This document shows positions 18,696 to 63,484 of a stretch of 64,000 nucleotides of DNA, piece after piece. Position 1 is the stretch's first letter; every line of letters starts with the position of its first letter. The notes under the pieces are model-generated. The model was given only the letters and a program-made list of their open reading frames with translations. It ran no database searches and had not been told where the DNA came from. Origin of the DNA: Patescibacteria group bacterium (lineage in GTDB: Bacteria > Patescibacteriota > Minisyncoccia > Phycocordibacterales > JAKAEA01); contig JAZKCY010000001.1 in NCBI GenBank assembly GCA_040387855.1, positions 317,857-381,856 of the forward strand. The letters are read 5' to 3'. Position numbers and translations under genes: made by a program.

Positions 18696-18701
18696 CAAAA
18701 A

Positions 18702-19308: not shown

Positions 19309-19394
19309 GTGTAAAATATTCTAACTGCTAACGTACTAAAGATCTTAGTAGTTATATTTTACCTTTGCCATCTTTGCTATACAAATTAATAATA

Positions 19395-19423: not shown

Positions 19424-19439
19424 TAAAGATATTATCGAT

Positions 19440-19607: not shown

Positions 19608-19733
19608 CTTCTATGAACTAAATAACCAATAATATTTTGTATCACCGACTGTGATGTAATAAAAGACGCATATCTATCGTATATACTTACCACTGATTGT
19701 TTCAGACTATGTATAAAAAGTATTGTCAATAAA

Positions 19734-19778
19734 ATAAAAAAAGCGCTCAAAGCTTGGAAGCCTGAGCGCTGGGTTTGT
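19734..19778. terminator. bidirectional terminator at the edge of the high-GC island
   Basis: 8-bp perfect stem agcgctca-(13 nt)-tgagcgct flanked by A and T runs; downstream of the minus-strand lipoprotein gene. Confidence 0.55.
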
Positions 19779-19813
19779 ACAAAAAGGACGAAACGAAAGT
19801 TACTCGACGACGA

Positions 19814-20581: not shown

Positions 20582-20613
20582 GTGACCTCCTTGGGTCTTG
20601 GGTTAAGGGTCTG

Positions 20614-22473: not shown

Positions 22474-22622
22474 TGCATGCTCCTTCTAAGAGGGGGTGCG
22501 GTTGCGTGTTCGTGTTCCACAGCTATGCCAACAAGGCACAGCCGTAACTTTCTATTCTGTTGTCAAACCTCTTTTCTCCCTGCCACAATGGCCGGGAAAT
22601 AAAAAAGAGGCTTCAATAGCCT

Positions 22623-32986: not shown

Positions 32987-33131
32987 ATGTTCATAGTATA
33001 CATGAAATTATGATCAAGATTGCTGCCATTGCTAAAAGGAGTAATCTGTCCTATAGTACTGATCAGGAGGAGTTGCGGTGGACTGCAGCTCTAAGTCCTA
33101 ATGACAGTGGACAATGTGTGGAGTGTCACTC

Positions 33132-33932
33132 ATGGCACGCACGTATATCGAGAGTCTCGAGAATCGAAGCCATCTTTCTGGTACCTTTGAGGTGTCGGGC
33201 CTGGGTACAACGTACGTGGGCAGGATCAAGATCGAGGTTGAGATCGGTACGGTGACGATCACGGGGACCAAAGGCCCCGACGTGATCGACGCCAAGGTCG
33301 TGAGCGGTAAGAACGCAAGCACGCTCGAGGTCAACGGCAAGAAGGTCACTGTTCCTGCCCGCTTCCACTCCTTCATCATGAAGGGGATGCTCGGCAAGGA
33401 CGACATGACGCTCAACACCCGGGGGTTCCTTCGGAACGAGACGTTGACGTTGATCTACGGCGACGACCCCGACAACTACGAGGTGGGGAGTGCCGACACG
33501 ATCCGTGGCTACTTCGACGGCGAAGGCCTCATCGAGGCTGGCGCAGGTGACGACTTCGTTACTGGCATCGGCCAGCCTGCTACCGGCTTCGGTCGCGTCG
33601 TAAACTTCAACGGTGGCTCGGGCAACGACGTCATTCTCGGTACGTCCGGGGACGACATCCTTACCGGTGGCACTGGCAAGAACAAGATCTATGGCCTGGG
33701 TGGCAACGACATCCTGGTCAGCGAAGGTGGCTTCGACGAGTTGTGGGGAGGGGCCGGCGACGACCAGCTCTTCACAACTGCGAACTACCTCACCACGGGC
33801 CCGACCGTTAGTGGGCTCTTCCGTGGAGGTCCTGGGATCGATCTTGTCGTGGTCTACGATGTGATCGATCCGTCGATCCTCGACTATCTCGACACTCGTA
33901 CCGTGGAGGACATCTACTTCACGTTTGGCTAA
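33132..33932 (+). CDS. secreted RTX-like (beta-roll, GGxGxD nonapeptide repeat) protein, paralog 1, high-GC
   Basis: N-terminal YIESLENRSHLS motif; repeats GGSGNDVILGTSGDDILTGGTGKNKIYGLGGNDILVSEGGFDELWGGAGDDQLF; track ORF 33114, ATG at 33132. Confidence 0.55.
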   Translation: MARTYIESLENRSHLSGTFEVSGLGTTYVGRIKIEVEIGTVTITGTKGPDVIDAKVVSGKNASTLEVNGKKVTVPARFHSFIMKGMLGKDDMTLNTRGFLRNETLTLIYGDDPDNYEVGSADTIRGYFDGEGLIEAGAGDDFVTGIGQPATGFGRVVNFNGGSGNDVILGTSGDDILTGGTGKNKIYGLGGNDILVSEGGFDELWGGAGDDQLFTTANYLTTGPTVSGLFRGGPGIDLVVVYDVIDPSILDYLDTRTVEDIYFTFG

Positions 33933-33967
33933 TAACAAGGTCAATAGAACATTAATGTACATCAACA

Positions 33968-34002
33968 CAGCATATCCTCATGAGGGGAGATGCTGTTTTT
34001 TA
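33968..34002 (+). terminator. rho-independent terminator in the AT-rich spacer between RTX-like genes
   Basis: cagcatatcctc-atg-aggggagatgctg followed by ttttttatt. Confidence 0.55.
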
Positions 34003-34161
34003 TTGTCTATAGTAACTATTTATACTACACCATATGCTTGACTTTTAATCTAATATATGCTATTATACACAACGAATGACCCCGCGTGTGCGGAGGTCTA
34101 TGTTCCCAGAGATTTGGCAAGTTTGCCATTCTCAGTCTGATTTCACTCTCGGAGACTCGAA

Positions 34162-35139
34162 ATGTCCAACATCCTCAGCCTCATCGTCGCTTCCGTCAAG
34201 AAGGCCCTCACCCCCGCCAACAACCCGATCGCACAGGCCATCCGGCCCGTCGTGATCGAGAAGATGGAAGGGCGGACCCTCTTCGCGGTCGCGCCGGCCC
34301 CGATCGAGATGCCGTCGATCAGCGTCGACCTGTTCAACGGGTCGATCAACGTCAACGGCACCAGCAAGTCCGACACCGTCAAGGTGTTCGGGCGAGTGGT
34401 CACCAAGACCGTCAACACCGACATGGGACTCGTCTCGTTCCCGGTGCTGAAGGCCGACTTCGTCGTCAACGGCATGTTGTTCTCCTACACGGGGGCCAAC
34501 AGCAGCGAGTGGTTCACCGTGAACACCGGCGCCGGCAACGACGTGGTGGAGGTGAGCATCGTGACCGGAGGTGCCTTCGGGTACTACGCCGGGTTGATCA
34601 ACACGGGCGCCGGTCTCGACAAGGTCCTCCTCAACCAGGCGGACCAGAGCGTGACCGTCGACACCGGCAACGACGCCGACTACGTGAAGGAGCTCGACGA
34701 CCCCAACAAGGCCCGTCACAACATCCTTCTCGGCAGCGGCAACGACGTCGCGGTGGTCGTGGACGACTACGTCGACGCCGGCAGCGGTGACGACAAGGTC
34801 TACGCGGCCCACAGCATCTTCGCCAACCCGAAGGACAACTTCGGTTCCGTGATCTACGCCGGCGACGGCAACGACACGGTCTACGGCGGTACCGGCGATG
34901 ACTTCATCTCCGGTGGCCGCGGCAAGGACACGATGTTCGCCGGGCTCGGGAACGACACGTTCCTGTACAACGCGTACGAGGTGAAGGACCCGGACAACGC
35001 CAACGGCGGCGCCGGTACCGACTCGGCCGTGCAGTACATCGACATCTCGCGTGGCGAGACGTTGGTGAAGTACCCCGGCATCTTCTCGAGCGTCGAGATC
35101 AAGACGTCGTACAAGTTCGACGGCAACAGCAAGGGCTGA
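34162..35139 (+). CDS. secreted RTX-like repeat protein, paralog 2, high-GC
   Basis: N-terminal VIEKMEGRTLFAVAPAP motif; repeats GSGNDVAVV, GSGDDKVYA, GDGNDTVYGGTGDDFISGGRGKDTMFAGLGNDTF. Confidence 0.55.
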   Translation: MSNILSLIVASVKKALTPANNPIAQAIRPVVIEKMEGRTLFAVAPAPIEMPSISVDLFNGSINVNGTSKSDTVKVFGRVVTKTVNTDMGLVSFPVLKADFVVNGMLFSYTGANSSEWFTVNTGAGNDVVEVSIVTGGAFGYYAGLINTGAGLDKVLLNQADQSVTVDTGNDADYVKELDDPNKARHNILLGSGNDVAVVVDDYVDAGSGDDKVYAAHSIFANPKDNFGSVIYAGDGNDTVYGGTGDDFISGGRGKDTMFAGLGNDTFLYNAYEVKDPDNANGGAGTDSAVQYIDISRGETLVKYPGIFSSVEIKTSYKFDGNSKG

Positions 35140-35213
35140 ACAAGCCCCGGCTAGAACGACAACGGACATACCAAGTACCTTAAACTAGTGCGAGTCACAC
35201 GGCTCACAAGCAC

Positions 35214-35249
35214 GACGGCGATCTCTATGAGGTCGCCGTTTACATTTTT
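35214..35249 (+). terminator. rho-independent terminator in AT-rich spacer
   Basis: acggcga-tctctatgagg-tcgccgt followed by ttacattttt. Confidence 0.5.
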
Positions 35250-35307
35250 GGATGATTTTGAATATAAATTACTTGCCATAAATCATATTATATGGTATTT
35301 TCTTTTT

Positions 35308-35333
35308 AGAAAGGCGCCACGTTGTGTGGCGCT
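35308..35333 (+). promoter_or_regulatory. GC-rich hairpin in the AT-rich 5' region of RTX paralog 3, followed by short direct repeats
   Basis: aggcgccac-gttgt-gtggcgctt; then ggtagtac-tgc-ggtagtac and aatctag-aatctag direct repeats before the start codon. Confidence 0.25.
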
Positions 35334-35402
35334 TCGTCCGATAGGAAAGATTAAGGTAGTACTGCGGTAGTACCTCAATCTAGAATCTAGCAGGAGTGTT
35401 CT

Positions 35403-36335
35403 ATGTTTCTCTCCCAGATCAAGCAGCACCTCGTGTGCTCGATGGGTCTCACCAGCCGCGCCCCCAAGCGTGGTTCGGCTCCCAAGCGTCAGGCGCCGCC
35501 GGTTCGTCCGGTCGTCGAAACGCTCGAGAGCCTGCAGTACATGTCGGCGACGATCCATGACGTCAACGCCAACGGCGACGTCGTCGTTGAAGTCACGGGT
35601 GACGTCGGGTTCTCGAAGAGCTACACCGTGGTCACCGCGTCCAACAACGCGGATGGCATGGCGACGCTCACCGTCTCGCACGGGTACTTGAACCCCGTTG
35701 TCACCACATGGTCGGCCTCGGTCGACACCCCGATCTTCGGGGTCCTGATCCAAGGCGACGGCACCAACAACGAGATCTTCCTCAACGGGCAGACGTCGGT
35801 GTTCGGTGGAGCGCTGATCAGCGTGGACAGCGGAGATGGCAACGACCTGATCGGGGCCGCCGTCGACACCTCGGTGATGCTCAACGGTGGTGCCGGCAAC
35901 GACGGGATCATCTGCGGTGGCATGGCTGCCCTCGCCGAGGGCAGCAGCCCGGTTTTCATCTCCGGTGGCAGTGGCAACGACAACCTGCAGGGCAGTCAGG
36001 GCTTCGACGTCATCAACGGCGGCAGCGGCAACGACTACCTGCAGGGTAACACCGGCAACGATCAGCTCTTCGGCGGGTCGGGCAACGACCGGCTGTGGGG
36101 CAACCAGGGGGACGACTCCCTCAACGGCGGTGTCGGCGACGACTACCTGCGCGGCAACAGCGGCAACGACGTCTACTACCTCGACCTGACCTTCAGGTAC
36201 CAGGGCCGTGAGGTGTTGGATGACACCAGCGGCCGCGACTCGATCTACTACGCGAAGGACACCAACTTCAAGGACATGACGATCAAGGGCCGCTTCGAGG
36301 TCTACCGGCTCGTCCCGAATGCGCCCGGCGTTTGA
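35403..36335 (+). CDS. secreted RTX-like repeat protein, paralog 3, high-GC
   Basis: canonical nonapeptides GGSGNDYLQGNTGNDQLFGGSGNDRLWGNQGDDSLNGGVGDDYLRGNSGNDVYY; N-terminal basic region then VVETLESLQYMS. Confidence 0.6.
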   Translation: MFLSQIKQHLVCSMGLTSRAPKRGSAPKRQAPPVRPVVETLESLQYMSATIHDVNANGDVVVEVTGDVGFSKSYTVVTASNNADGMATLTVSHGYLNPVVTTWSASVDTPIFGVLIQGDGTNNEIFLNGQTSVFGGALISVDSGDGNDLIGAAVDTSVMLNGGAGNDGIICGGMAALAEGSSPVFISGGSGNDNLQGSQGFDVINGGSGNDYLQGNTGNDQLFGGSGNDRLWGNQGDDSLNGGVGDDYLRGNSGNDVYYLDLTFRYQGREVLDDTSGRDSIYYAKDTNFKDMTIKGRFEVYRLVPNAPGV

Positions 36336-36419
36336 GCAGTACTGAGCATGAGGCTCGGTCAAAGTGACCCTTGGGAAAGAGGATTTGTATGTACAACAAC
36401 GTGACAGGATGTCACATAA

Positions 36420-38241: not shown

Positions 38242-38596
38242 GTTTTTTGATTGTTATTAGTAGTGAATCTAGATTGAATGGCTTTGCTATAAAATCATCA
38301 GCACCTGCATCCTTAACCGATTGTTCAGCTCCTGGATGAGCCGACATCATAATAATTGGAATTTGCTGTGTGGCTTTCTGACTTTTAAGCTTTTTACATA
38401 TTTCGCGGCCGTCCTTACCAGAAAGGAGGATGTCGAGGAGTATGAGATCAGGAAGAGCTTTTTTGTTTTTTTCAATTGCCTCAATCTCTTCTGGGTGTTC
38501 TGCTGCCACAACTTCATATCCAGAATACTCAAGAGTAAAACGCATGGCTTCCATGATGCTGTGATCATCTTCAATTACCAGGATCTTTTTACTCAT
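38234..38596 (-). CDS. stand-alone response-regulator receiver (REC) domain protein
   Basis: KILVIEDDHSIMEAM...DLILLDILLSGKDGREICKKLK; internal Met (MSKKILVIED, at 38596) starts 7 nt after the kinase stop; track ORF extends to 38662. Confidence 0.8.
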   Translation of the reverse strand: MSKKILVIEDDHSIMEAMRFTLEYSGYEVVAAEHPEEIEAIEKNKKALPDLILLDILLSGKDGREICKKLKSQKATQQIPIIMMSAHPGAEQSVKDAGADDFIAKPFNLDSLLITIKKHV

Positions 38597-40223
38597 GTGT
38601 TTGTTTTGTGAAAGGCATAGTAAAGCAAAACTTTGATCCCTTTCCCTTAATACTTTTAACATCTATTTTGCCATGATGTCTTCGAACTATTTCGGAAGAT
38701 ATATAGAGTCCAATTCCGAGTCCAGGAAATGTACGTGCTTCCGGACCCGACACTCTATAAAAACGTGTAAAGATTTTCTTTTGCTGTTCTTTTGTGATGC
38801 CTATACCGTAGTCTTGAACAGTAATTTCTGCATTATGTTTTGTTTCACCAACATGAACAACTACTTTATGTGCCTCTGGTGAGTATTTTATCGCATTCGT
38901 TAGTAAATTTGTAATTACTTGTGCAATACGATATTTGTCACCCCATACTTTCTTTGTGAGAGTGCCTTTGATTGTAATCTTGTGTTGAATTGAACTTGCC
39001 TGAACACTTTCGATTGTATCTACAACAACTTCTTGTAAATCAAAAAATTCCTCATGAAATTCCAGCTTACCCAACTGTAATTTTGAAATATTGAGAAGAT
39101 CATCAATAAGCAGCGTGAGTTTATTAATTTGGGTTTCCATCTTTTTAAGTGGAATGATCATTTGATCTTCACCTTTTCGTTTCATCTGCTCTAGAATAAC
39201 CTGCGTGTACATTTTTAAAGAGGTGACTGGGGTTTTCAATTCATGACTTGCAACACTAATAAACTCATCACGAACTGAAACTGCTTTTTGAGATTCTGTA
39301 AACAAACGTGCATTGTGAATAGCGAGTGCCGCCCGAGCTGCAACTTCTTGTGCAACAGTGAGATCTGCTTGTGTATATTTTCGCCCCGATTCTGAATAAA
39401 TAAAACTGATTGCACCAACAGGCTTATCTTGAATGATAATTGGAAGCATCATCACCGACGATAGCTGAAGCTTGCGAGCAAGTTTAAGGTGTTCTTCATC
39501 TCGTGCAGAAGCGACAAGCATTTCATCAGTAATAACTGGATAAAATTGTGTTTCACCCTTAGTAAGTACTTTAGTAAGTCCATTAGTCTCATCATTAATA
39601 TCAGGTGGATCTTTTTTGTTGAGTTCAATAGCCCATTTTACTTTTTTGGGGTCTATGTGGGCTACAGCCAATCTATGTATTTGATTATCGGCAGTAAGCA
39701 TATCTACTGCACACCAATCGGCAATCTCAGGTACACCAAGATCCGCAACAGCTTTGAGTGTTTTATTGTAATCAAGTGATGAAGATAATACTTTACTCAC
39801 TTGAGCTAAGTATGAAAGATTTGATTCCACTTGTTTTCGTTCTGTAATATCGATATTAACTCCAATAACCCGAATTGCTTTTTTCTTTGCATTGCGAACT
39901 ATTTTTGCTCGAGTCATCAGATGGTGAACACTTTTATCAGGCCAGATCACTCTGAATTCAATATTAAGTTCATTTTCGTGTTTCAATCCATATGCTGTTG
40001 CATCAGCAACTTTCTTCTTATCCTCAGGGTGAAGTAGTTTTGACCATTCGACGCTATTTTTTCCTTTAAAACCGCCATTTGGAAAGCCATAGAGGGCTTC
40101 AAAACCCTTTGACCATGTTGATATTCCTTTTACAAGATCCCATTCAAAAGTACCAATTTTTCCGGCTTTTTGAATAAATTCATCTTGATCTATGTGGTTT
40201 TGTTCCAAATGTGATGAGGACAT
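38589..40223 (-). CDS. cytoplasmic sensor histidine kinase, PAS-GAF-HisKA-HATPase_c
   Basis: PAS (GTFEWDLVKG...), GAF-like region, H-box SHELKTPVTSLKMY, G-boxes GIGITKEQQKKIF / GLGIGLYIS; probable start MSSSHLEQ at 40223 (track 40289 uses upstream GTG). Confidence 0.8.
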   Translation of the reverse strand: MSSSHLEQNHIDQDEFIQKAGKIGTFEWDLVKGISTWSKGFEALYGFPNGGFKGKNSVEWSKLLHPEDKKKVADATAYGLKHENELNIEFRVIWPDKSVHHLMTRAKIVRNAKKKAIRVIGVNIDITERKQVESNLSYLAQVSKVLSSSLDYNKTLKAVADLGVPEIADWCAVDMLTADNQIHRLAVAHIDPKKVKWAIELNKKDPPDINDETNGLTKVLTKGETQFYPVITDEMLVASARDEEHLKLARKLQLSSVMMLPIIIQDKPVGAISFIYSESGRKYTQADLTVAQEVAARAALAIHNARLFTESQKAVSVRDEFISVASHELKTPVTSLKMYTQVILEQMKRKGEDQMIIPLKKMETQINKLTLLIDDLLNISKLQLGKLEFHEEFFDLQEVVVDTIESVQASSIQHKITIKGTLTKKVWGDKYRIAQVITNLLTNAIKYSPEAHKVVVHVGETKHNAEITVQDYGIGITKEQQKKIFTRFYRVSGPEARTFPGLGIGLYISSEIVRRHHGKIDVKSIKGKGSKFCFTMPFTKQTHE

Positions 40224-40274
40224 ATACGTAGTCTTTAGACATTGGCATAATACAGTATGGGCTGATACAAGTAA

Positions 40275-40303
40275 ATAAAAACTCCCCACTTGGGGAGTTT
40301 TTG
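40275..40303. terminator. bidirectional rho-independent terminator
   Basis: aaactcccc-actt-ggggagttt flanked by A and T runs. Confidence 0.65.
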
Positions 40304-45527: not shown

Positions 45528-47195
45528 TTATTCTGCGAGCGGTAGAGTGAAGTAGAACGTTGAGCCTTTTCCTTTAATACTTTTAACCCATAATCTTCCT
45601 CCTTGATTCACTATAATTTCATTACAAATGTAGAGACCTAAGCCAAGTCCTGGATATGTTTTTAATTCAGGAGTATTTATTTGATAGAACCGTGTAAAGA
45701 TTTTATCTTGATGATCTTTATCAATTCCAATACCAAAATCTTGAACACCTACAATCAATTCTTTGTTTTTTTTCTTAATCTCAACAATGATTTTGTTTGC
45801 ATGCGGAGAATACTTAATCCCATTGGTTAGAAAATTAATTATTACCTGGCGCACTCTATCTTTGTCGGCAAATACTTTTGAAGAATCAGCAGTTCTGACA
45901 GTGATTTTATGAGTAGCTGTTGTCGCTTGTACATCTGTCACTACATCAGTCAATAAATTCTTAAGAGAGAACTGAGACTTTTTGTATTCTAATTTACCTT
46001 TTTGGACTCGAGTAATATCCAAAAGATCAACTATAAGTTTGGTAAGTCTATCAAGTTGTTCTTCTATTCGAGTGGCAAACATATGACCTTTTGCATCATT
46101 TTTGTCTTTAAAATGTTGATTCAAAACATGAGAAAACATTTTAAGTGAAGTTACTGGAGTCTTAAGCTCGTGACTTACAAGAGCAACGAAATCTTCTTTT
46201 TGTTGGTCTGCCAATTTCTTTTCTGTAATATCACGACCAATAGCAGATGCTCCAATAATATTACCCTTAGTATCTTTAATGGGTGATACTGTAAGAGATA
46301 CAAAAATTTCTTTTCCAGATTTATGAAAACGACGTGTTTCATAGTGTTGGATACGTTGACCCTTTTTTATGCAGCTAATTATATATTCCTCATCCTTATG
46401 AAGTGATGGGGGGATTAAAAAAGTAACATGCTTACCTATAATTTCTGAGTCTTTATAGCCATACATTTTTTCTGCTCCACGATTCCAGCTCGTAATTACT
46501 CCGTTCAAATCTTTACTCGTAATTGCATCGCTTGATGATTCAACAATTGCCGCGAGTCTCTTCTGAGCAAAATATGCTTCTTCAAGTTCTATCGTTCGAT
46601 TTTCAAGATCAACCTGAATCTTTTTTTCATCAGTAATGTCTTGAGCTGTTCCAATCATCTTAACAACTCTGCCTTTTCTGTCTTTTATAACTCTGCCTAT
46701 GCCTCGCACATATCTAATAGAACCATTTTTTCGAAATACACGGTGATAGAGAAGATATGGCTTTTTTGCTTTAAATGCCGTTTCAATTATTTTTTTTATT
46801 TCTGCTTGATCTTCGGGATGAATGAGAGATATATACTCATCAAAAGTTGGATTGTGTTTTGAGACGGGGAGATCAAATATCTTAAATAATTGAGGTGACC
46901 ATATAATAGTGTTGGCTAAAACATCCCATTGCCAGTTACCAAGCTTAGCTGTTGTTTGGGCTAGCTGAAGTTCATTGTTTACAGATTCAATTGTTGCAAT
47001 CTTTTCATGAATTACTTCTGTCATCAATTGAATACCTGTATACAATTCTGTGAATTCATCATCATTATCAGGAAGAGTGATTTTAGTAGAAAAATCACCA
47101 ATTGCCGCTTTTGCAAAGAGGGGGCGAAGCTTTTTTAATTGTTTTTGAACATTTTTCTTGTAATGTTCTAGTCCGGGATCTTTCATTATTTCCAT
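45528..47195 (-). CDS. sensor histidine kinase with HAMP-like N-terminus, two PAS domains, HisKA and HATPase_c
   Basis: H-box SHELKTPVTSLKMF, G-boxes GIGIDKDHQDKIF / GLGLGLYICNEI, 555 aa, no TM. Confidence 0.8.
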   Translation of the reverse strand: MEIMKDPGLEHYKKNVQKQLKKLRPLFAKAAIGDFSTKITLPDNDDEFTELYTGIQLMTEVIHEKIATIESVNNELQLAQTTAKLGNWQWDVLANTIIWSPQLFKIFDLPVSKHNPTFDEYISLIHPEDQAEIKKIIETAFKAKKPYLLYHRVFRKNGSIRYVRGIGRVIKDRKGRVVKMIGTAQDITDEKKIQVDLENRTIELEEAYFAQKRLAAIVESSSDAITSKDLNGVITSWNRGAEKMYGYKDSEIIGKHVTFLIPPSLHKDEEYIISCIKKGQRIQHYETRRFHKSGKEIFVSLTVSPIKDTKGNIIGASAIGRDITEKKLADQQKEDFVALVSHELKTPVTSLKMFSHVLNQHFKDKNDAKGHMFATRIEEQLDRLTKLIVDLLDITRVQKGKLEYKKSQFSLKNLLTDVVTDVQATTATHKITVRTADSSKVFADKDRVRQVIINFLTNGIKYSPHANKIIVEIKKKNKELIVGVQDFGIGIDKDHQDKIFTRFYQINTPELKTYPGLGLGLYICNEIIVNQGGRLWVKSIKGKGSTFYFTLPLAE

Positions 47196-47335: not shown

Positions 47336-47752
47336 ATGAAGCATGATTTCAGTACTATTTTAAAGAATAAGAAGTTTAAAGTTACTCCAGCTCGAGTGGC
47401 TATTCTTGAGGTGTTCTCAAAAGAATGTAAACCAGTAAATGCAGAGGAGATTTTTGATAGTGTGAAAGATACAAAGATAGATCAGGTAACGGTTTATAGA
47501 ACGCTAAATTCGTTTGAAGAAACAGGTATTTTAAAAAGAGTAGATCTTCGAAAAGGATCTGCCTATTATGAACTTAATAGTGCTCAGCACCACCATCATA
47601 TTGTGTGTACTATTTGTGGAACTATTGAAGGTTTTGATATGTGTTCTGTTGAAAAGATTTCAAAAGAAGTATTGAATACCTCTAAAAAGTTTAAAACTAT
47701 TTCAGATCACTCACTTGAATTGTTTGGAAGTTGTACAAAATGCAGCAAATAA
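47336..47752 (+). CDS. Fur-family metalloregulator (Fur/Zur/PerR)
   Basis: winged-helix N-domain, HHHHIVCTICG ... CTKC metal-site motifs, 138 aa. Confidence 0.8.
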   Translation: MKHDFSTILKNKKFKVTPARVAILEVFSKECKPVNAEEIFDSVKDTKIDQVTVYRTLNSFEETGILKRVDLRKGSAYYELNSAQHHHHIVCTICGTIEGFDMCSVEKISKEVLNTSKKFKTISDHSLELFGSCTKCSK

Positions 47753-47767
47753 AAAACTAGCCATCGG

Positions 47768-48145
47768 CTAGCGGTTTGGGTCGCCCTGCATCTCTTCGGT
47801 CACGAGTGTGATTGTGACAAACTCGAGATCTGGTACTGGCGATGTCACTTCGGCGCAGTGTACGTCGAAGTTGAACAGGGCTGTTTCCGACTGAGGGAAT
47901 CTTCGGTCCCTCCACCACTTTGCTGCTTCAGGAGCGGACTGTTCTAAAGCATTGATCGCATCGACCTGACGGACGATGTACCCTGGTTTGGGACCCAAGG
48001 ACTTGCCATCGACTACTCCCGAAACGCCGAAGCCAATCCGGTCGAAGGCGATGCATGGCATCTCCACACCCACCCATTGGATCCGGATTATTACTGGGGC
48101 TTGACCATCGGGTGTTTCCACGATGACGATCTTTCCTGTAATCAC
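47768..48145 (-). CDS. hypothetical protein encoded in a high-GC island
   Basis: 125-aa ORF with GTG start, about 58% GC, no recognisable domain. Confidence 0.3.
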   Translation of the reverse strand: MITGKIVIVETPDGQAPVIIRIQWVGVEMPCIAFDRIGFGVSGVVDGKSLGPKPGYIVRQVDAINALEQSAPEAAKWWRDRRFPQSETALFNFDVHCAEVTSPVPDLEFVTITLVTEEMQGDPNR

Positions 48146-51548: not shown

Positions 51549-51639
51549 CTTTCCTATACACAGCTGTACATTGGATGAGCCTGAATAGTGCGATATACTT
51601 AAGTCACATTATCATGTGGTCTTATACTTCGCTTATTTG

Positions 51640-54285
51640 ATGAAAAAGTTACATATATATTTACTTATAGCAGCACTACTTATTGGTAGTGTTGTTGTCG
51701 TTGGTATGATGATTGAAAAAAACAATCGTCTACCTGCTGCGGTTAGTCAATCCAGCATATCCAACACAACTCAGCGGGTTACTCAATTTATGCTGATAAA
51801 TGCTGATAATGATCAGGCAATTACTTCAATTACTAATAACTCAGTAATAAATCTTGCTACATTACCTACAAAGAACTTAAATATTGAGGTAATTACTAAT
51901 CCTGCTACTGTGGGCAGCGTTAGGTTCTCATATGACCAATATTCAGGATACAAGCTTCAAGATATCCCACCATATGCTATTGGAGGAAGTTCAACGAGTA
52001 GAGATTTCTATAGTTGGAATCTTACCGAAGGATCACATACCCTTAAAGTTACTCCATATACTGGTAAGGGAGGAACAGGTACAGCGGGAAGTCCTCTTAC
52101 TGTAGAATTTTCTGTAATCAATCAAGTTCAACAAGCTACAATTCAAAGTCTTGAACTCTACAACACTGACTATAATGCACCAACTAAATTTTTTACTCCC
52201 ATTACTGATGGCACCGTAATTGATTTAACTAAACTTACAACTAAAAATCTTACAATTAAGGCTAATCCATCTGCTGATACTTCTATTGTTCAATTTGATT
52301 TGGATGGAAAATTAAAATTTGGATATGAAACTGGTGCACCGTATTTTATGGCTGGAGATAATACTTCAAACTGGCCCTATGCATGGAATCCAACATTAGG
52401 TTCACATACAGTAGTGGTAACTCCATTTAAGCGAGTAAATGGATCACTCGTTGCGGGAGTTCCTAAAACAATTCGATTTTCTGTAATCAATCCAGCCCCA
52501 GTAGTTGTTGTACCAACTATGTCACTTGCAGCTCCTACGAGTATTACTTCAGGAGGGAATATTACATTGTCGTGGACATCTACAAACACTACGTCATGTG
52601 TAGCCTCAGGTGATTGGACAAATACTCAAGGTCCATCTGGAACCATTACATTCTCAGGAATTACTCAAGCAAAAACATTTACGTTAACGTGTACTGGTGC
52701 AGGAGGTAATGTTTCAAAGACTGTATCTGTAGCGGTAACTGAAGTAGTTGTGCCTCCCACTCCACCCACACCACCAACTCCGCCTACACCTCCCACTCCT
52801 CCAGATATAACCCCACCAGACACAACACCTGTTGTTGGGTATACGGATATAACACCTAAATTTGATTCTAAAATTGTATATGTATCATCATCACTAGGAA
52901 GTGATAGTAACGATGGATCACTTGGCGCACCGGTACAGTCGGTATCAAAAGCTATGACTATGATACGAAGTGGTTATCCAGATCAGATACTTCTAAAACG
53001 AGGAGATAGTTGGAGTGGAGAAATTACAAACTATATTACATCACTCTACAATCCAATCTCAGGTAGATCTGCATCAGACAGATTGGTAATTAGTTCATAT
53101 GGCACAGGAAGTAGACCAAAAGTATCTTCAAATACCAACGGAGTCACTCTAGGTCATGGTACAAAACATATTGCTATTGTTGGAATCCATTTCGTCGGGA
53201 ATTTTAAGGATGATGCAATACGACTTGAAGGTACTTCTGTTGGTGGTGAAAATATTCTTATTGAAGATTGCTACATAGAAAAGTTTGCAAAGGGAATTAC
53301 TATCTCAGTTGCCCAGCCATATTCTCAAGTAACACAACAGAATTCACCTAATCTCATAAAGAATGTTGCTATTCGACGTAATGTTGTCGTTGATGTATTT
53401 AGTACTGTTGATGCGCAAGGGAATCTAGAACACCCTGAAGGAACATATTTTTATGGTATTAACGGCATACTTGTAGAAGATAATATATTTGATAACAACG
53501 GACGGCGGGCAAACGGAACAGGAGGTACAATCTTCGGACATGCAGTTTATATTACAGGTAGAAACTGGAACTCAGTTGTGCGAAATAATATATTCTCAAA
53601 TGCAGCAAGTGATGCTCTTCAAGCTCGTGCTGGAGGAATAGTAGAAAACAACTTCTTCTACAATAATCCAATTCACCTTTCTTTTGGATATGTAAATGGA
53701 GGAGGACCACAACATTTAGGCGGTGTTCGAGGAACCGTTAAGAATAATGTGATGATTGGTACTCGTATTGTAGATGCGGGAGGACCAAATGTATCTGGTC
53801 CAGTAAATGGTAAACGAGGTCAAGCATTGGTAATGGCAAACATTGCTGAGGCTGTTGTAGAAAAAAATATTATTGCGTTTAATACACTGTCGACAAATCG
53901 TGCTGCTATTATTCTTGAGCCTGGATCTGGTGAATATGCAGCAGATGCAATAGGTATTCATAATCTTATGATACGAGATAATATTGTGTATCAATATCCT
54001 ACTGCCTTTACAATTAATAGTCTTGGACTTGTTGGACTTGGCCGATACTCAGCAAGTAATATTGTATTACGAGGAAATCATCTTTCAGGTCTAGTTAAAG
54101 TAAGTTCTGCATATACTACTCCAGATGGACCATTTAATGCTCCTATTGAAGTGAGTCCAAATCTCAGTTCAAATTATGATTCATTTATTTTAGAAGCACG
54201 TAGTCAATCTAAAACAAATTGGCGATCTCAGTTTACTGCAACTGCAATCAACAATCAGGTGCGGAGCTTAATGTATTTCAAATAA
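51640..54285 (+). CDS. large cell-surface protein: N-terminal anchor, two tandem about 115-aa beta-sandwich repeats, Ig-like domain, Pro-Thr linker, C-terminal right-handed parallel beta-helix (pectin-lyase-fold) domain
   Basis: internal tandem repeat (…NLNIEVITNPATVGSVRFSYD… / …NLTIKANPSADTSIVQFDLD…), linker PTPPTPPTPPTPPTPP, beta-helix NNIFSNAASDALQARAGGIVENNFFYNN; ATG at 51640 (track start 51616 is GTG). Confidence 0.6.
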   Translation: MKKLHIYLLIAALLIGSVVVVGMMIEKNNRLPAAVSQSSISNTTQRVTQFMLINADNDQAITSITNNSVINLATLPTKNLNIEVITNPATVGSVRFSYDQYSGYKLQDIPPYAIGGSSTSRDFYSWNLTEGSHTLKVTPYTGKGGTGTAGSPLTVEFSVINQVQQATIQSLELYNTDYNAPTKFFTPITDGTVIDLTKLTTKNLTIKANPSADTSIVQFDLDGKLKFGYETGAPYFMAGDNTSNWPYAWNPTLGSHTVVVTPFKRVNGSLVAGVPKTIRFSVINPAPVVVVPTMSLAAPTSITSGGNITLSWTSTNTTSCVASGDWTNTQGPSGTITFSGITQAKTFTLTCTGAGGNVSKTVSVAVTEVVVPPTPPTPPTPPTPPTPPDITPPDTTPVVGYTDITPKFDSKIVYVSSSLGSDSNDGSLGAPVQSVSKAMTMIRSGYPDQILLKRGDSWSGEITNYITSLYNPISGRSASDRLVISSYGTGSRPKVSSNTNGVTLGHGTKHIAIVGIHFVGNFKDDAIRLEGTSVGGENILIEDCYIEKFAKGITISVAQPYSQVTQQNSPNLIKNVAIRRNVVVDVFSTVDAQGNLEHPEGTYFYGINGILVEDNIFDNNGRRANGTGGTIFGHAVYITGRNWNSVVRNNIFSNAASDALQARAGGIVENNFFYNNPIHLSFGYVNGGGPQHLGGVRGTVKNNVMIGTRIVDAGGPNVSGPVNGKRGQALVMANIAEAVVEKNIIAFNTLSTNRAAIILEPGSGEYAADAIGIHNLMIRDNIVYQYPTAFTINSLGLVGLGRYSASNIVLRGNHLSGLVKVSSAYTTPDGPFNAPIEVSPNLSSNYDSFILEARSQSKTNWRSQFTATAINNQVRSLMYFK

Positions 54286-54293: not shown

Positions 54294-54803
54294 TCAAGGA
54301 ACTTGATCCTTGGGTGCATTATCAGACAAAGGATTTGCCTTTGTCTGATTTTGTTGTGGGGAACTACTTGGGTAGCAGAGGAAAATTGCAGCAACTATCG
54401 CTGCAGAAAATCCCACTGCTTGCATCCATGTGATTCCGCGGTTGACGATGATCGAATAGATCGCCGGTGGGCATGTTTGGGCGACGAGCATCACTACAAA
54501 AAGAATACCCACTTTTGCAGGCATAGCTTCGGATAGCAATGTGTTGAAGATCACCACGCCTCCGGTTGCGATCACTGCAGCAATGATGGTCATTGTCCAG
54601 TTGGCACGGTAGAGCGAACTTGTATCCATCAGTGCCGGAGTGATCAAGAGCGTAAGCTGAATACAGCTCACAACCACACACGTTACAAATCCAGATAGAT
54701 TGCTCTTGTTCATGAACAATGGCCAGATGCCGAAGAGCAATCCCGCTGCGATGGCCATGATTTGATGTTTCATCTCCACAGACTCCACAAAGACTCGGAA
54801 CAT
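54294..54803 (-). CDS. small 4-5-TM membrane protein, intermediate GC
   Basis: hydrophobic ORF; about 48% GC, higher than the flanks; overlapping alternative-frame ORF 54364..54843 considered less likely. Confidence 0.35.
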   Translation of the reverse strand: MFRVFVESVEMKHQIMAIAAGLLFGIWPLFMNKSNLSGFVTCVVVSCIQLTLLITPALMDTSSLYRANWTMTIIAAVIATGGVVIFNTLLSEAMPAKVGILFVVMLVAQTCPPAIYSIIVNRGITWMQAVGFSAAIVAAIFLCYPSSSPQQNQTKANPLSDNAPKDQVP

Positions 54804-57033: not shown

Positions 57034-57087
57034 TTAGTTGAATAATATACTATATGAGTTTTTATGTCAAATAAAAAACCGACATGG

Positions 57088-57852
57088 TCAGAGGATCTGA
57101 TTCATGCCGGCAACGGTGATCTTGAGGTTTTCGTACAGCCCGGGCACACCAACTGTGCTGTAGGATTGGCCATCTGGAGCAATGAACACGAGGTCACAGT
57201 CGCATACGAGCTCATTGCAGCCCGGGCAGGTTTGGTAGCGATCAAACACCTCCTGCTCGAGATCGATACCACGCACGTATGCGAGCGTGAGTAGCCAGCT
57301 GAGTACATCTGCAGCTTCGAGCTCAGACTGGTGATCTGCCATACCACCACGAAGAGGTGTATGTGGGCCTCTCGACTGGATGATGCTCAGTTCACCGACT
57401 TCGCTTACGAGCCTGCCGTAGATCTTCCAGAACTTGTCGCCCTGAAGGTGTCGCCAGCCGTAGACGGTCTTGAGGTGCTCTTGCCACCGTCTCAACGTCC
57501 AGCCGCGCTGCTCATCATGCAGCTTGTAATCCTTTGGGTCGGGACGGGTTGCATCATTGCAGTCGCAGGGCATGTGCGTGCAGTACAAGCAGCCATACGG
57601 CGGGAACTTGTACATCATCCCGCGCTCAAGGTCGACGCGACCATTGAAGAAATTGACTACGTTGTAGAAGTAGCTGACACTTCTCGCAAGTCGTCCGGGC
57701 AGGCGCTCGCTTTTCCGCTCCGCATCAGCGATCTTGCCGACGCGGTAGATCATATGGCCTGCACGTTCCGGGAACGAACCTCCGGTGTGTTGAACACGAC
57801 GGTTGTACATCCGGTTGAAATGGTTCTGCAGTCCGAGAATGGTGGTTTCCAT
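57088..57852 (-). CDS. Cys-rich protein with C-terminal MazG-like nucleotide pyrophosphohydrolase motifs, encoded in a high-GC island
   Basis: LVSEVGELSII and ELEAADVLSWLLTLAYVRGIDLEQEV match the MazG E-x-x-E-x-G-E-L / E-x-x-D-x-L pattern; CxxC pairs CLYCTHMPCDC and CPGCNELVCDC; about 60% GC. Confidence 0.4.
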   Translation of the reverse strand: METTILGLQNHFNRMYNRRVQHTGGSFPERAGHMIYRVGKIADAERKSERLPGRLARSVSYFYNVVNFFNGRVDLERGMMYKFPPYGCLYCTHMPCDCNDATRPDPKDYKLHDEQRGWTLRRWQEHLKTVYGWRHLQGDKFWKIYGRLVSEVGELSIIQSRGPHTPLRGGMADHQSELEAADVLSWLLTLAYVRGIDLEQEVFDRYQTCPGCNELVCDCDLVFIAPDGQSYSTVGVPGLYENLKITVAGMNQIL

Positions 57853-57917
57853 GTGACGCGCTCCTACGTGGTGTTGTGGTCGTAGTACAGAAGAACGACG
57901 ATCGTTCTGTCGCTATA

Positions 57918-58721: not shown

Positions 58722-58799
58722 ATAAGTTCATTATACCAACTAGTAATAGGTCAACAATACTAAGACGTGTGAGAACTAAGAATCTGTATTTTTAAGTAT

Positions 58800-58826
58800 A
58801 AAAAAACCGTGTCGAAACACGGGTGT
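58800..58826 (-). terminator. rho-independent terminator (minus strand) after the high-GC gene 58859..59371
   Basis: ccgtgt-cgaa-acacgg hairpin with T-run on the minus strand (the plus strand shows the preceding A-run). Confidence 0.55.
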
Positions 58827-58858
58827 CATGAAATCTACGACAAGAACTGATGGTGCAC

Positions 58859-59371
58859 TTACGGCTTGATCCACACCGCAGTGGACTCTGCTGAGATCGT
58901 CGTTGATGTGCTACCAGTGGAGCTCACGGTTATGCGAACTCCCTGGCCGGTCACGCTGTAGACGCCACCTCTTTGGAAACCGCTAATGCTCTTGCTAACC
59001 GTGGTGTCGGTCGAGTAGACCTTGAACGTGGCAAGTGCCACTTGGCGCATAGTGCCAGTGGTTTGCTGTTGGCGGATCACCAGCCGAGTATGTGTGGCCC
59101 GAGGACCACTTGGGTTGATGGTGTAGGTGAACTTCACCGTCGCCGCACCCGTAAGCGTATTACGGGCGACGATCTGCCGCTGCAGGTAGAGCGGTGGTTG
59201 TACCCGCGTTACCGAGGTTGTGGTCACCGCTCTAAGGTTGTAGGTGTAAGCAGCCTGTGCCACCGAGTCGAGAATCGATGTCGCGCCTCCACCGAGGCCA
59301 ACCGACATCACAGTACGATTTTCGAGACATTCAACATACGGAAGCATGAAACGTAGTCCTTCTGCATGCAA
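58859..59371 (-). CDS. secreted Thr/Ser-rich protein with N-terminal LENR motif, encoded in a high-GC island
   Basis: TTG start; N-terminus MLPYVECLENRTVMSVGLGGG shares the LExRxxxS motif with the RTX-like paralogs; beta-rich TxT repeats; about 60% GC. Confidence 0.4.
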   Translation of the reverse strand: MHAEGLRFMLPYVECLENRTVMSVGLGGGATSILDSVAQAAYTYNLRAVTTTSVTRVQPPLYLQRQIVARNTLTGAATVKFTYTINPSGPRATHTRLVIRQQQTTGTMRQVALATFKVYSTDTTVSKSISGFQRGGVYSVTGQGVRITVSSTGSTSTTISAESTAVWIKP

Positions 59372-59439
59372 ACGAAAAGGAGCAGCCGTGCTCCTTGTTC
59401 ATCTGCGGGAACTGAACCGAACGGTACAATACCAAAAAA

Positions 59440-59628
59440 TCAGGAAAATCTCAAGCCTTCTTTTTTAAGTGCAGCTCGCAAGAGTGGAAGTGAACCTGGT
59501 CCCATGCCGTGAAGAGCTAAGATTTCTTTTTCAGAATATCTTGAGAGTTTTTTGAGGGAATCTATACCAGCATTAAGTAATGCTCTTTGTGCTGGTGCAG
59601 AAAGTTTTATTTGACTAATTTCTTTCAT
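59440..59628 (-). CDS. small helix-hairpin-helix (HhH) domain protein
   Basis: LHGMGPGSLPLLRAALK (GhG hairpin) in a 62-aa ORF. Confidence 0.4.
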   Translation of the reverse strand: MKEISQIKLSAPAQRALLNAGIDSLKKLSRYSEKEILALHGMGPGSLPLLRAALKKEGLRFS

Positions 59629-60019: not shown

Positions 60020-60100
60020 AAAAATATTTATTAAATGATATTTAAAGTATAGCAGAGTTAGAATAATCTAGCATAAAAAAAACGCATACAGCCAGGAAGT

Positions 60101-60259
60101 TTACTTGGTCGGTATATGCGTTGGGGGATTGCGTGGTGTTTGCGGGACGCGGTATTCTTTGCCGCAATAGATACACCACATCTGCTTGCCGCGCGTATGT
60201 TCGTCTACAGACTGGGTTTTGACGCAGCGCGGATTGGGACAATAGAGTTTCACGGGCAT
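60101..60259 (-). CDS. 52-aa zinc-ribbon protein encoded in a high-GC micro-island, not in ORF track
   Basis: manual translation MPVKLYCPNPRCVKTQSVDEHTRGKQMWCIYCGKEYRVPQTPRNPPTHIPTK (CxxxxC ... CxxC); AAGGAG 7 nt upstream of ATG; preferred over the overlapping 91-aa track ORF 60042..60317. Confidence 0.3.
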   Translation of the reverse strand: MPVKLYCPNPRCVKTQSVDEHTRGKQMWCIYCGKEYRVPQTPRNPPTHIPTK

Positions 60260-60431
60260 GGTTGGCTCCTTTCACTCTACCTATCCATAATGGTACAGCT
60301 ATTTGGCATTTATACAACGGATAACATGAATATTGTATTAAAAATATAAATGGAAAACCCGCCGACGATACAGCTGACGGAGGGTTTCCATCGGCCGCTT
60401 TGTGGCGGGGTGTGTGAGGTACTTGTGAAGG

Positions 60432-61088
60432 TCATCGACGACGGCGACGAGCGAGAAGTCCTATGCCAGCGAGTCCTGTTAGTGCAACGGATCCTGGCTC
60501 AGGCGCTTGGGTCAGCACGAAGGTCTTGATCTCGACGTGGGAAGCTGGACCGCGGAGGTCGAAGTGGTAGACCGCGGTGAGTGTGCCGTTCGAGCTTTTG
60601 CTCAGACTTCCGATGGCATTGTCGACGAGGCCTGATGACAGAGTAAACTGCACCATGCCCACATCGAGTTGGCCCATCGAATCGTTGATGTGATCGAGAT
60701 CGATGGCACCGGCAAACGTTGCCGGTGTACCATGGGTTTCGCTGAACGGCAGGGTCTGCGTGCTTGCGCTTCGCATCGAGCGGATGTCTCGACCGGTCAT
60801 CTTCACATCCACCGAGTACGTGTAGTACTCCTTTTGTTGGTATGTGATTTCCACGAGATCGATCGTCGCACTCGTTATGAGTCGAGCCGCGAGCGATCCT
60901 GTTGAGGGATCGATCGAGTACTGCTGCGAGATGATTCCAGAGTCGATCGTCATGACCGTCTGGGAATCGGACTTGATCCCGGACGCGCTCAAGGGGTTGA
61001 GGGTGATGAGCGAAGCCTGCGTGGCCGAGCTCAGGGAGAGAATGGCCACGATGAATGCGAGAGCGGACTTCATTGAGAATCCCTTCAC
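60432..61088 (-). CDS. PEP-CTERM sorting-signal secreted protein (exosortase substrate type), encoded in a high-GC island
   Basis: signal peptide MKSALAFIVAILSLSSATQA; C-terminus PEPGSVALTGLAGIGLLARRRRR (PEP motif + TM + Arg cluster); about 60% GC. Confidence 0.6.
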   Translation of the reverse strand: MKGFSMKSALAFIVAILSLSSATQASLITLNPLSASGIKSDSQTVMTIDSGIISQQYSIDPSTGSLAARLITSATIDLVEITYQQKEYYTYSVDVKMTGRDIRSMRSASTQTLPFSETHGTPATFAGAIDLDHINDSMGQLDVGMVQFTLSSGLVDNAIGSLSKSSNGTLTAVYHFDLRGPASHVEIKTFVLTQAPEPGSVALTGLAGIGLLARRRRR

Positions 61089-61183
61089 GATTTCACTGCT
61101 ACATTGCTTGGGGCACTATGCCTTTCACAATAGCTGAGTCTGTGTGTATTATATCATATTTAGGTAAAAAGTCAATATTTAAT

Positions 61184-62302: not shown

Positions 62303-63484
62303 CTATTTTAGCTTTTTTGGGGTTTTATGAATAGGCAACGAGAAAAAGAACGTTGTGCCCGTACCAACTTTGCTTTCCAACCAAATTTTACCTCCATGAG
62401 ACTTTATAATTTCAGAGGTGATATAGAGTCCAAGTCCAAGACCTTTAATTTCTCGCTCTTTTTTACCATTAGTTCTATAGAATCGTTCAAAGATCTTTTC
62501 TTGCTGATCCCTCGCTATACCCATGCCAAAATCTTGAACACTAATGATAATATCTGTTTTGTTTTTGCTTATCTTAATAGCTATCTTTTTACTATCTGGA
62601 GAATACTTAATAGCATTGGTTAATAAGTTTATAAGTACCTGACTAATACGTTCTTTATCAGCAAAAATCTTAATGCCTGTTGAACCTGACACAGTTATTT
62701 TATGCGTATCTGTAGAGTATTGGAATGTCTCAACCTCTTCATGAACTGCCTTATCCAATAAGAAATGATTTCGATGCATTGCCATTGTTCCAGATTGAAT
62801 CGAATACACATTGAGGAAAGAACTCATCATGCTACTTAATCTATCAATTTGAGAATCAATTTTATTTGAAATAAAAAGGGAATTGATATCTTTATCTTTT
62901 TTATGGCGCTTTTGCAAAAGCTGAATAAACATTTTGATACTTGTAAGAGGGGTTTTTAGTTCATGCGATGCCATTGCAATAAAATCATCTTTCTCTTTTT
63001 CAATTCTGCGTTGCTCAGTCACATCCTCAATGGCAAGTAAAATGAGCTCAGTTTGATGTCCCTCAAGTACTATACGTCGAGCATTGAGCATCATGGTTCG
63101 GGTGCCAATATCCTCAAAATGGTGAGTTACTTCATAATCATTAAAAACAGAATCTTTTGGGAGGATTTCTAAAAGGAGCTTTTTAAGTGGGGGAATGTCC
63201 CATTGTCCGTTACCAAGATCAAATATCTTTTTATTATAGGTTTCAGACTTTTTTACTTCAAACATCTCAAAGAAAGCCTTATTAGCTGTCTTAATGCATA
63301 AGTCTTCATTTAAGATGACGAGAGGTTCACGAACTGTTTCAACAATTGCTTCAGCGTAGGCAAACATGACTACCACATCTTCAACAGTTAGATTTTTTAT
63401 ATCTTTAATATCCTTAATATCCTTGAGGAGTTCGATGGCTTCATTGGCTTTCTCGTGAGCCTTGATGTTCTTTTTGTTTTTCAA
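62303..63484 (-). CDS. cytoplasmic sensor histidine kinase (PAS-HisKA-HATPase_c)
   Basis: H-box SHELKTPLTSIKMF, G-boxes GMGIARDQQEKIF / GLGLGLYITSEI. Confidence 0.8.
   Translation of the reverse strand: MKNKKNIKAHEKANEAIELLKDIKDIKDIKNLTVEDVVVMFAYAEAIVETVREPLVILNEDLCIKTANKAFFEMFEVKKSETYNKKIFDLGNGQWDIPPLKKLLLEILPKDSVFNDYEVTHHFEDIGTRTMMLNARRIVLEGHQTELILLAIEDVTEQRRIEKEKDDFIAMASHELKTPLTSIKMFIQLLQKRHKKDKDINSLFISNKIDSQIDRLSSMMSSFLNVYSIQSGTMAMHRNHFLLDKAVHEEVETFQYSTDTHKITVSGSTGIKIFADKERISQVLINLLTNAIKYSPDSKKIAIKISKNKTDIIISVQDFGMGIARDQQEKIFERFYRTNGKKEREIKGLGLGLYITSEIIKSHGGKIWLESKVGTGTTFFFSLPIHKTPKKLK

Follow-up and report, generated by a model that had tools for sequence, protein, structure and literature searches.

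A 64-kb stretch of the 981,549-bp Patescibacterial contig JAZKCY010000001.1, called the window below, carries on its minus strand a gene for a 213-aa protein (hereafter the PEP-CTERM protein) that ends in a bona fide PEP-CTERM domain. The domain is already annotated by the NCBI pipeline, and horizontal gene transfer (HGT) into Patescibacteria is documented; the unusual part is the host. The gene is compositionally foreign and imported; its base composition would suit a donor resembling Parcubacteria, with a GC content of about 55-60%. The most likely reading of the sequence, which we hold with about even confidence, is an acquired surface protein whose tail would act as a membrane anchor; a tethered protein of this kind is favoured because no cognate exosortase could be shown. 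All negative statements on gene content refer to the window, which amounts to 6.5% of the contig.

The PEP-CTERM gene and its product

An initial annotation of the window had proposed an orphan PEP-CTERM protein in the minus-strand open reading frame (ORF) 60432..61088, and this ORF is confirmed. Its mechanical start is a GTG at 61088 (218 aa), with no Shine-Dalgarno (SD) sequence in front of it. The ATG at 61073, five codons into the mechanical ORF, is the likelier start, since the SD-like GAAGGG lies 7 nt before it and the NCBI product of 213 aa begins there (MES2436779.1, 'MAG: PEP-CTERM sorting domain-containing protein [Patescibacteria group bacterium]'; MAG, metagenome-assembled genome). 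Coordinates of all features are collected in Table 1.

The last 24 residues (APEPGSVALTGLAGIGLLARRRRR) score above the cut-offs of both domain models: 24.6 bits against TIGR02595 (cut-off 16, E-value = 2.9e-5) and 21.9 bits against PF07589 (cut-off 20.7). The tripartite tail that had been described from the letters therefore passes the TIGR02595 check proposed with it. Its layout is APEP-GSVALTGLAGIGLLA-RRRRR-stop, with the PEP motif, a hydrophobic span (GSVALTGLAGIGLLA) and five arginines at the extreme C-terminus. A simple pattern for such tails matches a single one of the 407 stop-to-stop ORFs of the window, the PEP-CTERM ORF itself, and none of 7,927 ORFs in 1.25 Mb of loci from the Candidate Phyla Radiation (CPR) and DPANN. 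When a looser pattern is applied to CPR/DPANN loci (about 2 Mb, about 10,000 ORFs), the homologue P0002 described below is the sole other match. Given this rarity, the PEP-CTERM match is not one by chance.

By inspection, the N-terminus exhibits the n/h/c layout of a Sec signal peptide, with a predicted cleavage after TQA, between MKSALAFIVAILSLSSATQA and SL. It aligns with the signal peptide of P0002, which ends in ASAQ ahead of a serine, in line with the signal peptide proposed in the initial annotation. The ectodomain between signal peptide and tail has no relative in Pfam, NCBIfam, PHROG or PDB. Structure prediction with AlphaFold2 gives a poor model from the single sequence (predicted local distance difference test, pLDDT, 45) and a modest one from the two-sequence alignment with P0002, which is all-beta with 10-11 strands (pLDDT 58.5, core 70-80; predicted template modelling score 0.60). 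GFP-like barrels returned by Foldseek from the PDB (template modelling score about 0.18, E-value > 1e-3) were treated as meaningless, and a profile search of PDB sequences with the ectodomain gives no match.

The host is a low-GC Patescibacterium (CPR) of Paceibacteria type. The contig is labelled Patescibacteria at NCBI and the nearest relatives of the host genes are Paceibacteria-type MAGs (TypA, for example, at 68% identity), which bears out the CPR-like character first assigned to the genome. The low-GC genes of the window are ordinary Patescibacteria housekeeping genes, as judged from hidden Markov model (HMM) scans and in some cases by sight. They include RpoD, a UvrD/PD-(D/E)XK helicase-nuclease, HisRS, TruB, TypA, MutS, MutL and ClpP, as well as histidine kinases, response regulators, a DsbA-like protein, ZIP, SulP, a Na+/H+ exchanger and YibE/F proteins. 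Against this background (GC at third codon positions, GC3, of 0.17-0.31 in the neighbouring host genes) the PEP-CTERM gene exhibits a GC content of 0.57 and codon-position values GC1/2/3 of 0.55/0.49/0.68. A two-state HMM delimits a high-GC segment of 58% GC in a background of about 36%, made up of the ORF and the stem of its terminator.

The only homologue is borne by another Patescibacterium

Homology searches covered about 15 billion proteins altogether. In a word-indexed search, the PEP-CTERM protein itself was the single entry retrieved from 5.8 billion clusters; an exhaustive phmmer search of 1.84 billion representatives with the ectodomain found one true relative, P0002 (219 aa, 37% identity, E-value = 1e-15). 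The third phmmer match, P0003 (E-value = 2e-4), is a repetitive low-complexity protein and was rejected as spurious. A two-sequence profile found no relative in 185,579 GTDB species genomes; the MAG of MES2436779.1 is evidently not a GTDB species representative.

P0002 exhibits the same plan of signal peptide, homologous body and tail (VPEPATVELFGLGAASLLLRLRRPS), and keeps the PEP motif, a Gly/Leu-rich span and the basic cluster at a body identity of 37%. Its tail matches a dozen PEP-CTERM models, with 15.9 bits against TIGR02595, just below the cut-off of 16. The gene is followed by a hairpin and TTTTTTATT. It lies on contig L001 (JBBCBH010008267.1, GCA_037975565.1), which is uniformly of about 65% GC, and its GC3 (0.85) equals that of the neighbouring genes. 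L001 is a Patescibacterial contig, as indicated by its L19 protein, 83-93% identical to L19 proteins of which the named ones are labelled Parcubacteria, Taylorbacteria or Patescibacteria, and by the conserved gene order (pseudouridine synthase, L19, variable region, QueA, DsbA, VKOR) common to two such contigs, one of 55% GC. The family thus has two members and is so far found in Patescibacteria only.

Within L001, P0002 occupies the cargo slot of a conserved cluster, rplS / tRNA-Leu(gag) / tRNA-Arg(ccg) / cargo / tRNA-His(gtg), found at 9726-10880 in L001 and at 1421-3082 in L082, the contig of a Parcubacterium of 55% GC. Because the slot in L082 carries unrelated genes (a 201-aa membrane protein and a DNA glycosylase), P0002 is accessory in its own genome; the tRNA-flanked slot is a variable insertion hotspot of mid- to high-GC Parcubacteria. 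The GC1/2/3 values of the PEP-CTERM gene match those of the genes of L082. The initial annotation had implied import from a diderm. Import is supported by the foreign composition, but a diderm donor is not required, since the sole homologue is borne by a uniformly 65% GC Patescibacterium.

No sorting enzyme is seen near either member of the family. As the initial annotation had stated, no exosortase, extracellular polysaccharide (EPS) export or outer-membrane gene is found among the window ORFs scanned against Pfam and NCBIfam, a scan that took in every polytopic membrane protein identified, about a dozen ORFs being recognised by sight only. In particular, the scan finds no exosortase (EpsH/Xrt, PF09721/TIGR04178), no archaeosortase, and no Wzx/Wzy/Wza-type gene that would link the protein to an EPS locus. 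Its sugar-related genes are those of a glycogen-type cluster alone (glycogen synthase, GH57, GT2 and alpha-amylase, 23.6-28.8 kb). Neither the 18.8 kb around P0002 nor L082 encodes an exosortase/archaeosortase-type enzyme detectable with Pfam or NCBIfam. A 169-aa membrane ORF of the window (54294-54803) was considered as a sortase-like candidate and rejected; it scores 10.8 bits (E-value = 0.34) against the model of CPBP intramembrane proteases, the cut-off being 220.

A predicted self-contained cassette

The upstream neighbour of the PEP-CTERM gene is a low-GC gene of the VIT1 family on the same strand, with its stop at 61184, so that the PEP-CTERM gene follows 95 nt downstream. The AT-rich, host-type spacer between the two harbours a sigma-70-type promoter-like site, the best of eight such sites in the region (2.3 expected). 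On the other side, a hairpin begins 22 nt past the stop of the gene (dG = -30 kcal/mol, z = -3.3; none of 200 shuffled sequences is equally stable). Its stem forms the 3' edge of the GC island, at 60358. With promoter, ribosome-binding site, intact ORF and own terminator, the locus is predicted to be a self-contained expression cassette.

A 52-aa ORF, previously described as a zinc ribbon directly upstream of the PEP-CTERM gene, proves to be a separate downstream unit and no upstream partner. It lies on the same strand and has a real AAAGGAG Shine-Dalgarno sequence (60272-60266, 6 nt ahead of its ATG), but is located 3' of the PEP-CTERM gene; the terminator and then about 100 nt of AT-rich DNA separate the two. 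The zinc-ribbon label has its sole basis in a CxxxxC...CxxC pattern; every HMM match falls below its cut-off, including those to zinc-ribbon models (15.8 bits against YnfU NF038384, cut-off 36; 14.6 bits against the 4-Cys prefix model NF045510, cut-off 24).

High-GC islands across the window

The high GC content noted earlier for this gene holds (GC3 of 0.68 in a segment of 58% GC), but the gene does not stand alone in this respect, as about 15 gene-sized islands make up 14-16% of the window (GC 0.48-0.64, GC3 up to 0.94, against about 36% GC for the window). Most consist of one ORF each, and most have strong SD sites. A hairpin followed by a T5-7-A-T(1-3) tract lies within 90 nt downstream of 10 of 15 island ORFs, against 2 of 45 host genes (Fisher p = 2e-6); terminators of like design also occur 3' of P0002 in L001 and of islands in L012 and L015, two contigs of other CPR MAGs. 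The islands look like self-contained cassettes. Their products are three RTX-repeat proteins, a lipoprotein, a proline-rich membrane protein, a Pro_CA_2-like protein and several orphans. The lipoprotein and the proline-rich protein, which share a 2.8-kb island, have no family assignment, and no type I secretion gene is found near the RTX genes. The protein of island 16308-16925 has no homologue, and both island proteins tested (with the PEP-CTERM protein) are orphans.

The mosaic of host and island DNA is real, since an independent Logan contig obtained with a different assembler (L163, run SRR26324620) is 100% identical to positions 6308-21106 of the window and crosses three host-island junctions; it ends within the two-gene island 19743-22544. 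Such a density of islands is unusual. In two panels of CPR/DPANN loci, islands take up on average 0.7% and 0.2% of the sequence; 57 of 63 loci in the first panel and 34 of 36 in the second are free of them. Similar single-gene high-GC islands are present in the independent CPR MAGs L012, L015, L046 and L063 (background of about 40% GC). Several of them encode signal-peptide proteins, none being homologous to products of the window islands.

No integrase, tRNA, shared flanking repeat or att-like site is found around the islands. For a phage or plasmid origin, no PHROG family is obtained for ten island proteins and no plasmid matches in tblastn.

Four island proteins (ORFs at 33114, 34162, 35403 and 58859-59371) exhibit, within residues 12-48, an N-terminal motif [IVL]-E-x-[LM]-E-x-[RL]-x-x-[LFM]-[SA], its instances being IESLENRSHLS, IEKMEGRTLFA, VETLESLQYMS and VECLENRTVMS. 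The motif is absent in 15,211 host residues, and its strict form ([IVL]Ex[LM]ExRxx[LFM][SA]) is absent in 3,045 CPR/DPANN ORFs. Such N-termini give no NCBIfam match even at E-value <= 10, and the literature gave no anchor either. The motif may be a secretion signal of a donor lineage and is possibly Planctomycetota-like.

Origin and likely role of the protein

We propose that a high-GC cassette was acquired horizontally by a low-GC Paceibacteria-type chromosome, as one among many single-gene insertions, the immediate donor plausibly being a mid- to high-GC Patescibacterium. The GC content of the gene, its GC3 against that of the host, and the HMM island support the import. The Sec signal peptide would take the protein over the single membrane and be cleaved after TQA, with the ectodomain, predicted to be all-beta and about 170 aa long, facing the cell exterior. 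Transfer would stop at the PEP-CTERM domain, with the hydrophobic span in the membrane and the arginine cluster in the cytoplasm. The outcome would be a C-terminally tethered surface protein, rather than a substrate cleaved by exosortase and re-attached. For an episymbiont, such a protein would qualify as a candidate adhesin or as a factor in its interaction with the host. The data show the identity of the domain, the composition of the gene, the anatomy of the cassette, the host taxon and the homologue with its context; the export, topology, function and donor, and an anchoring without processing, are inferred.

Several observations weigh against it. The hydrophobic span is short (14-15 residues). 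The PEP tripeptide is kept in both diverged homologues, which argues for recognition by some enzyme and not for a mere anchor, and the search for an exosortase or archaeosortase spans 6.5% of the contig. The N-terminal motif shared by four other islands gives a hint that some of the islands, at least, came from donors outside CPR. The independently reassembled junctions are those of three other islands, the PEP-CTERM island (60358-61068) not being among them. A search for an empty site through the VIT1 gene and a DUF553-like gene, in GTDB representatives and JGI metagenomes, gave best relatives of 66-68% identity, with no conserved synteny, no match to an island protein and no proof of insertion.

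A tenable alternative, to which we give appreciable weight though well short of even, is direct import from an exosortase-bearing high-GC diderm of Planctomycetota, Verrucomicrobiota or Proteobacteria type, possibly the host of the episymbiont, P0002 being a parallel acquisition. PEP-CTERM is overwhelmingly a diderm feature (PMC12188702). P0002, as the cargo of a variable slot, belongs to the accessory genes of its genome, and neighbouring islands encode RTX-repeat proteins and share the motif absent in CPR/DPANN ORFs. However, no diderm homologue is found among the 1.84 billion cluster representatives or the 185,579 GTDB species genomes, and both members of the family are CPR-borne. The motif proteins fit no curated model of an N-terminal motif, and the tested island proteins, being orphans, identify no donor.

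The main rival as to the fate of the protein, though rather unlikely in our view, is a working sorting system of the exosortase/archaeosortase type. Its enzyme, coded for in another part of the 981-kb genome, would cut at PEP and link the protein to a lipid or to a polymer on the surface of the monoderm envelope. This rival gains weight from the two members of the family, which despite a body identity of 37% both retain the PEP motif, the hydrophobic span and the basic cluster and are both CPR-borne. Nor is a diderm envelope a prerequisite: the premise of the initial annotation that this class of sorting needs one is too strong, as archaeosortase A (ArtA) and PGF-CTERM of archaea are counted among exosortase-type systems (bioRxiv 10.1101/2023.06.07.544157). 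On the other hand, no such enzyme is seen in the window, in L082 or over the 18.8 kb that surround P0002. Exosortase systems typically have many substrates per enzyme, whereas the window holds this one PEP-CTERM protein and no further substrate (1 of 407 ORFs), and the CPR/DPANN loci (about 2 Mb) have no PEP-CTERM-like tail other than that of P0002. P0002 itself falls short of the TIGR02595 cut-off, and a literature search found nothing relevant linking PEP-CTERM, exosortase or archaeosortase to CPR.

It is unlikely that the gene is a neutral passenger, that is, recently integrated foreign DNA in no use, with the PEP-CTERM tail as a relic awaiting decay. The abundance of orphan high-GC inserts (about 15% of window bases against panel means of 0.2-0.7%), the lack of homologues of the tested island proteins and the absence of cognate machinery nearby would all agree with this. 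But the ORF is intact with both signal peptide and tail, it follows a near-consensus promoter in host-type AT-rich DNA and is closed by a strong terminator, and its architecture is shared with P0002. Moreover, the streamlined genomes of CPR bacteria as a rule lose DNA that serves no purpose. An assembly or binning chimera, with the high-GC piece foreign to the chromosome, is scarcely credible: the source is a MAG and the independent junctions are those of other islands, but the island is ORF-sized with host sequence on both sides in a 981-kb contig, three other islands recur base for base in the independent assembly, a like pattern is seen in unrelated MAGs, and the protein is listed from Logan too.

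Two points might mildly surprise a specialist: a PEP-CTERM family so far confined to CPR genomes, and how densely the window is set with orphan cassettes of shifted GC content that have their own terminators, surface proteins being enriched among their products. If a Patescibacterium does process PEP-CTERM, the range of exosortase-type sorting would come to include CPR and a monoderm envelope in bacteria, and this would offer a handle on the surface proteins by which ultra-small episymbionts hold their hosts. If the tail merely tethers the protein, as we think likelier, the locus would be a clean, well-delimited case in which a streamlined CPR genome received a single gene by HGT, the gene having its own terminator and a promoter in host-type DNA, and a sorting-signal annotation need not imply sorting machinery. 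The dense GC-shifted cassettes could also serve to trace donor or host identity by composition in this lineage.

One further idea is improbable but worth stating. The PEP-CTERM protein (P0001) and P0002 might mark a PEP-CTERM-type sorting native to some Patescibacteria, through an unrecognised exosortase/archaeosortase-like enzyme in the monoderm CPR envelope, or through recognition of the tail by the exosortase or membrane of a diderm host, the protein being displayed or delivered by the episymbiont. On a wider view, dozens of orphan, terminator-equipped high-GC cassettes rich in surface proteins (PEP-CTERM, three RTX, lipoprotein) might be accumulating in this genome and in a few MAGs of Paceibacteria type, as a set of tools for interaction with hosts.

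Other features of the window

Table 1. Coordinates of the features described in the text (window positions, unless another contig is named)
Feature	Position	Strand	Remarks
PEP-CTERM protein gene	60432..61073	-	213 aa plus stop; equals MES2436779.1
Signal peptide MKSALAFIVAILSLSSATQA	61014..61073	-	By inspection; alignment to P0002 signal peptide
Ectodomain, about 170 aa	60507..61013	-	Predicted all-beta, 10-11 strands
PEP-CTERM domain	60435..60506	-	TIGR02595 and PF07589 above cut-offs
Sigma-70-type promoter-like site, TTGACT-16 nt-(TG)TATAAT	61148..61175	-	11/12 matches, extended -10 (TG-n-TATAAT)
SD-like GAAGGG	61081..61086	-	7 nt upstream of ATG 61073
Intrinsic terminator	60348..60409	-	GC-rich hairpin 60409-60358, then UUUUCCAUUU
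High-GC segment	60358..61068	.	Two-state HMM; 58% GC against about 36% background
Downstream mini-island, SD and 52-aa Cys-rich ORF	60101..60272	-	ORF 60101..60259; weak hairpin and T8 tract after ORF
High-GC islands, part 1	1058-1459, 5531-5905, 11483-12235, 16308-16925, 19743-22544, 33064-36375		
High-GC islands, part 2	47760-48128, 54294-54803, 57079-57913, 58852-59424, 60101-60259, 60358-61068		
Island 3' flanks with terminators (examples)	5508-5530, 12236-12260, 16926-16965, 19742-19813, 33933-34005		
Island 3' flanks with terminators (further examples)	47745-47767, 57065-57087, 58795-58858, 60075-60100		
RTX (HemolysinCabind) repeat genes	33114-33932, 34162-35139, 35403-36335	+	Tandem, high-GC, short AT-rich spacers
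Lipoprotein gene	19814-20581	-	LASGC lipobox, Gly/Asn/Gln-rich low-complexity tail
619-aa proline-rich membrane protein gene	20614-22473	-	One internal transmembrane helix
Islands in other MAGs	L012 3151-4646, 16261-17714; L015 2537-3082, 10754-11137, 17181-17867		
Islands in other MAGs	L046 2376-3278, 5955-6287; L063 4359-5075		

Neither a tRNA nor an Rfam element is found in the window. Three paralogous PAS/GAF histidine kinases are encoded on the minus strand (38589-40289, 45528-47195 and 62303-63484), and the DNA of their HATPase regions is 70-80% identical over stretches that appear as the direct-repeat families D4, D6 and D7. On the plus strand, 51616-54285 encodes an 889-aa low-GC protein with an N-terminal transmembrane/signal segment and internal repeats of about 370 nt (D11). 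This protein belongs to none of the Pfam families and may be a surface protein native to CPR. Between two islands, 59440-59628 (minus strand) encodes a stand-alone 62-aa protein with the C-terminal (HHH) domain of the RNA polymerase alpha subunit (PRK07758 family, E-value = 5.5e-20).

Comparison with known sorting systems

In passing both domain models and in its tripartite C-terminal layout, the PEP-CTERM protein resembles the substrates of the PEP-CTERM/exosortase systems (EpsH, XrtA/XrtB) of diderm bacteria. Like many of these it is small, and by inspection it has a putative N-terminal signal peptide. It differs from them in its host, a Patescibacterium presumed to be monoderm, and in the lack of an exosortase, an EPS locus and PEP-CTERM paralogs in 64 kb. 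Its body fits no named PEP-CTERM subfamily (PepA NF033554, XDP1 NF041927, CCXG, THxN, QFxxD and others); about ten such models align with the tail only, far under their cut-offs. The best subfamily score is obtained with the flocculation protein PepA of Zoogloea (NF033554, 23.8 bits, cut-off 80), which, like other small PEP-CTERM surface proteins, has in common with the present one a size of about 200-260 aa, a PEP-CTERM tail and, as predicted here, secretion; only residues 190-218 align, with no homology in the body.

The archaeosortase/PGF-CTERM system, which works in archaea, is homologous to exosortase/PEP-CTERM, with a C-terminal tripartite signal of the same class and an enzyme of the exosortase family. 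It illustrates how a tail of this kind could function in the present host. Here the PGF-CTERM models remain below their cut-offs (13.3 against 24.5 and 15.0 against 18.8 bits), and the motif is PEP instead of PGF. The MYXO-CTERM model also stays below its cut-off (18.2 against 20 bits), the tail having neither a cysteine nor PGF.

With regard to its setting, the locus resembles the individually transferred genes and HGT islands of Patescibacteria, which make up to 13% of the genome length and are exchanged mostly within the phylum (PMC12455944), in the island content of about 15% and in having a CPR-borne homologue. Unlike those, the inserts described here are orphan cassettes of one gene with its own terminator and a strong shift in GC, and their density is far higher than in the comparison CPR/DPANN loci.

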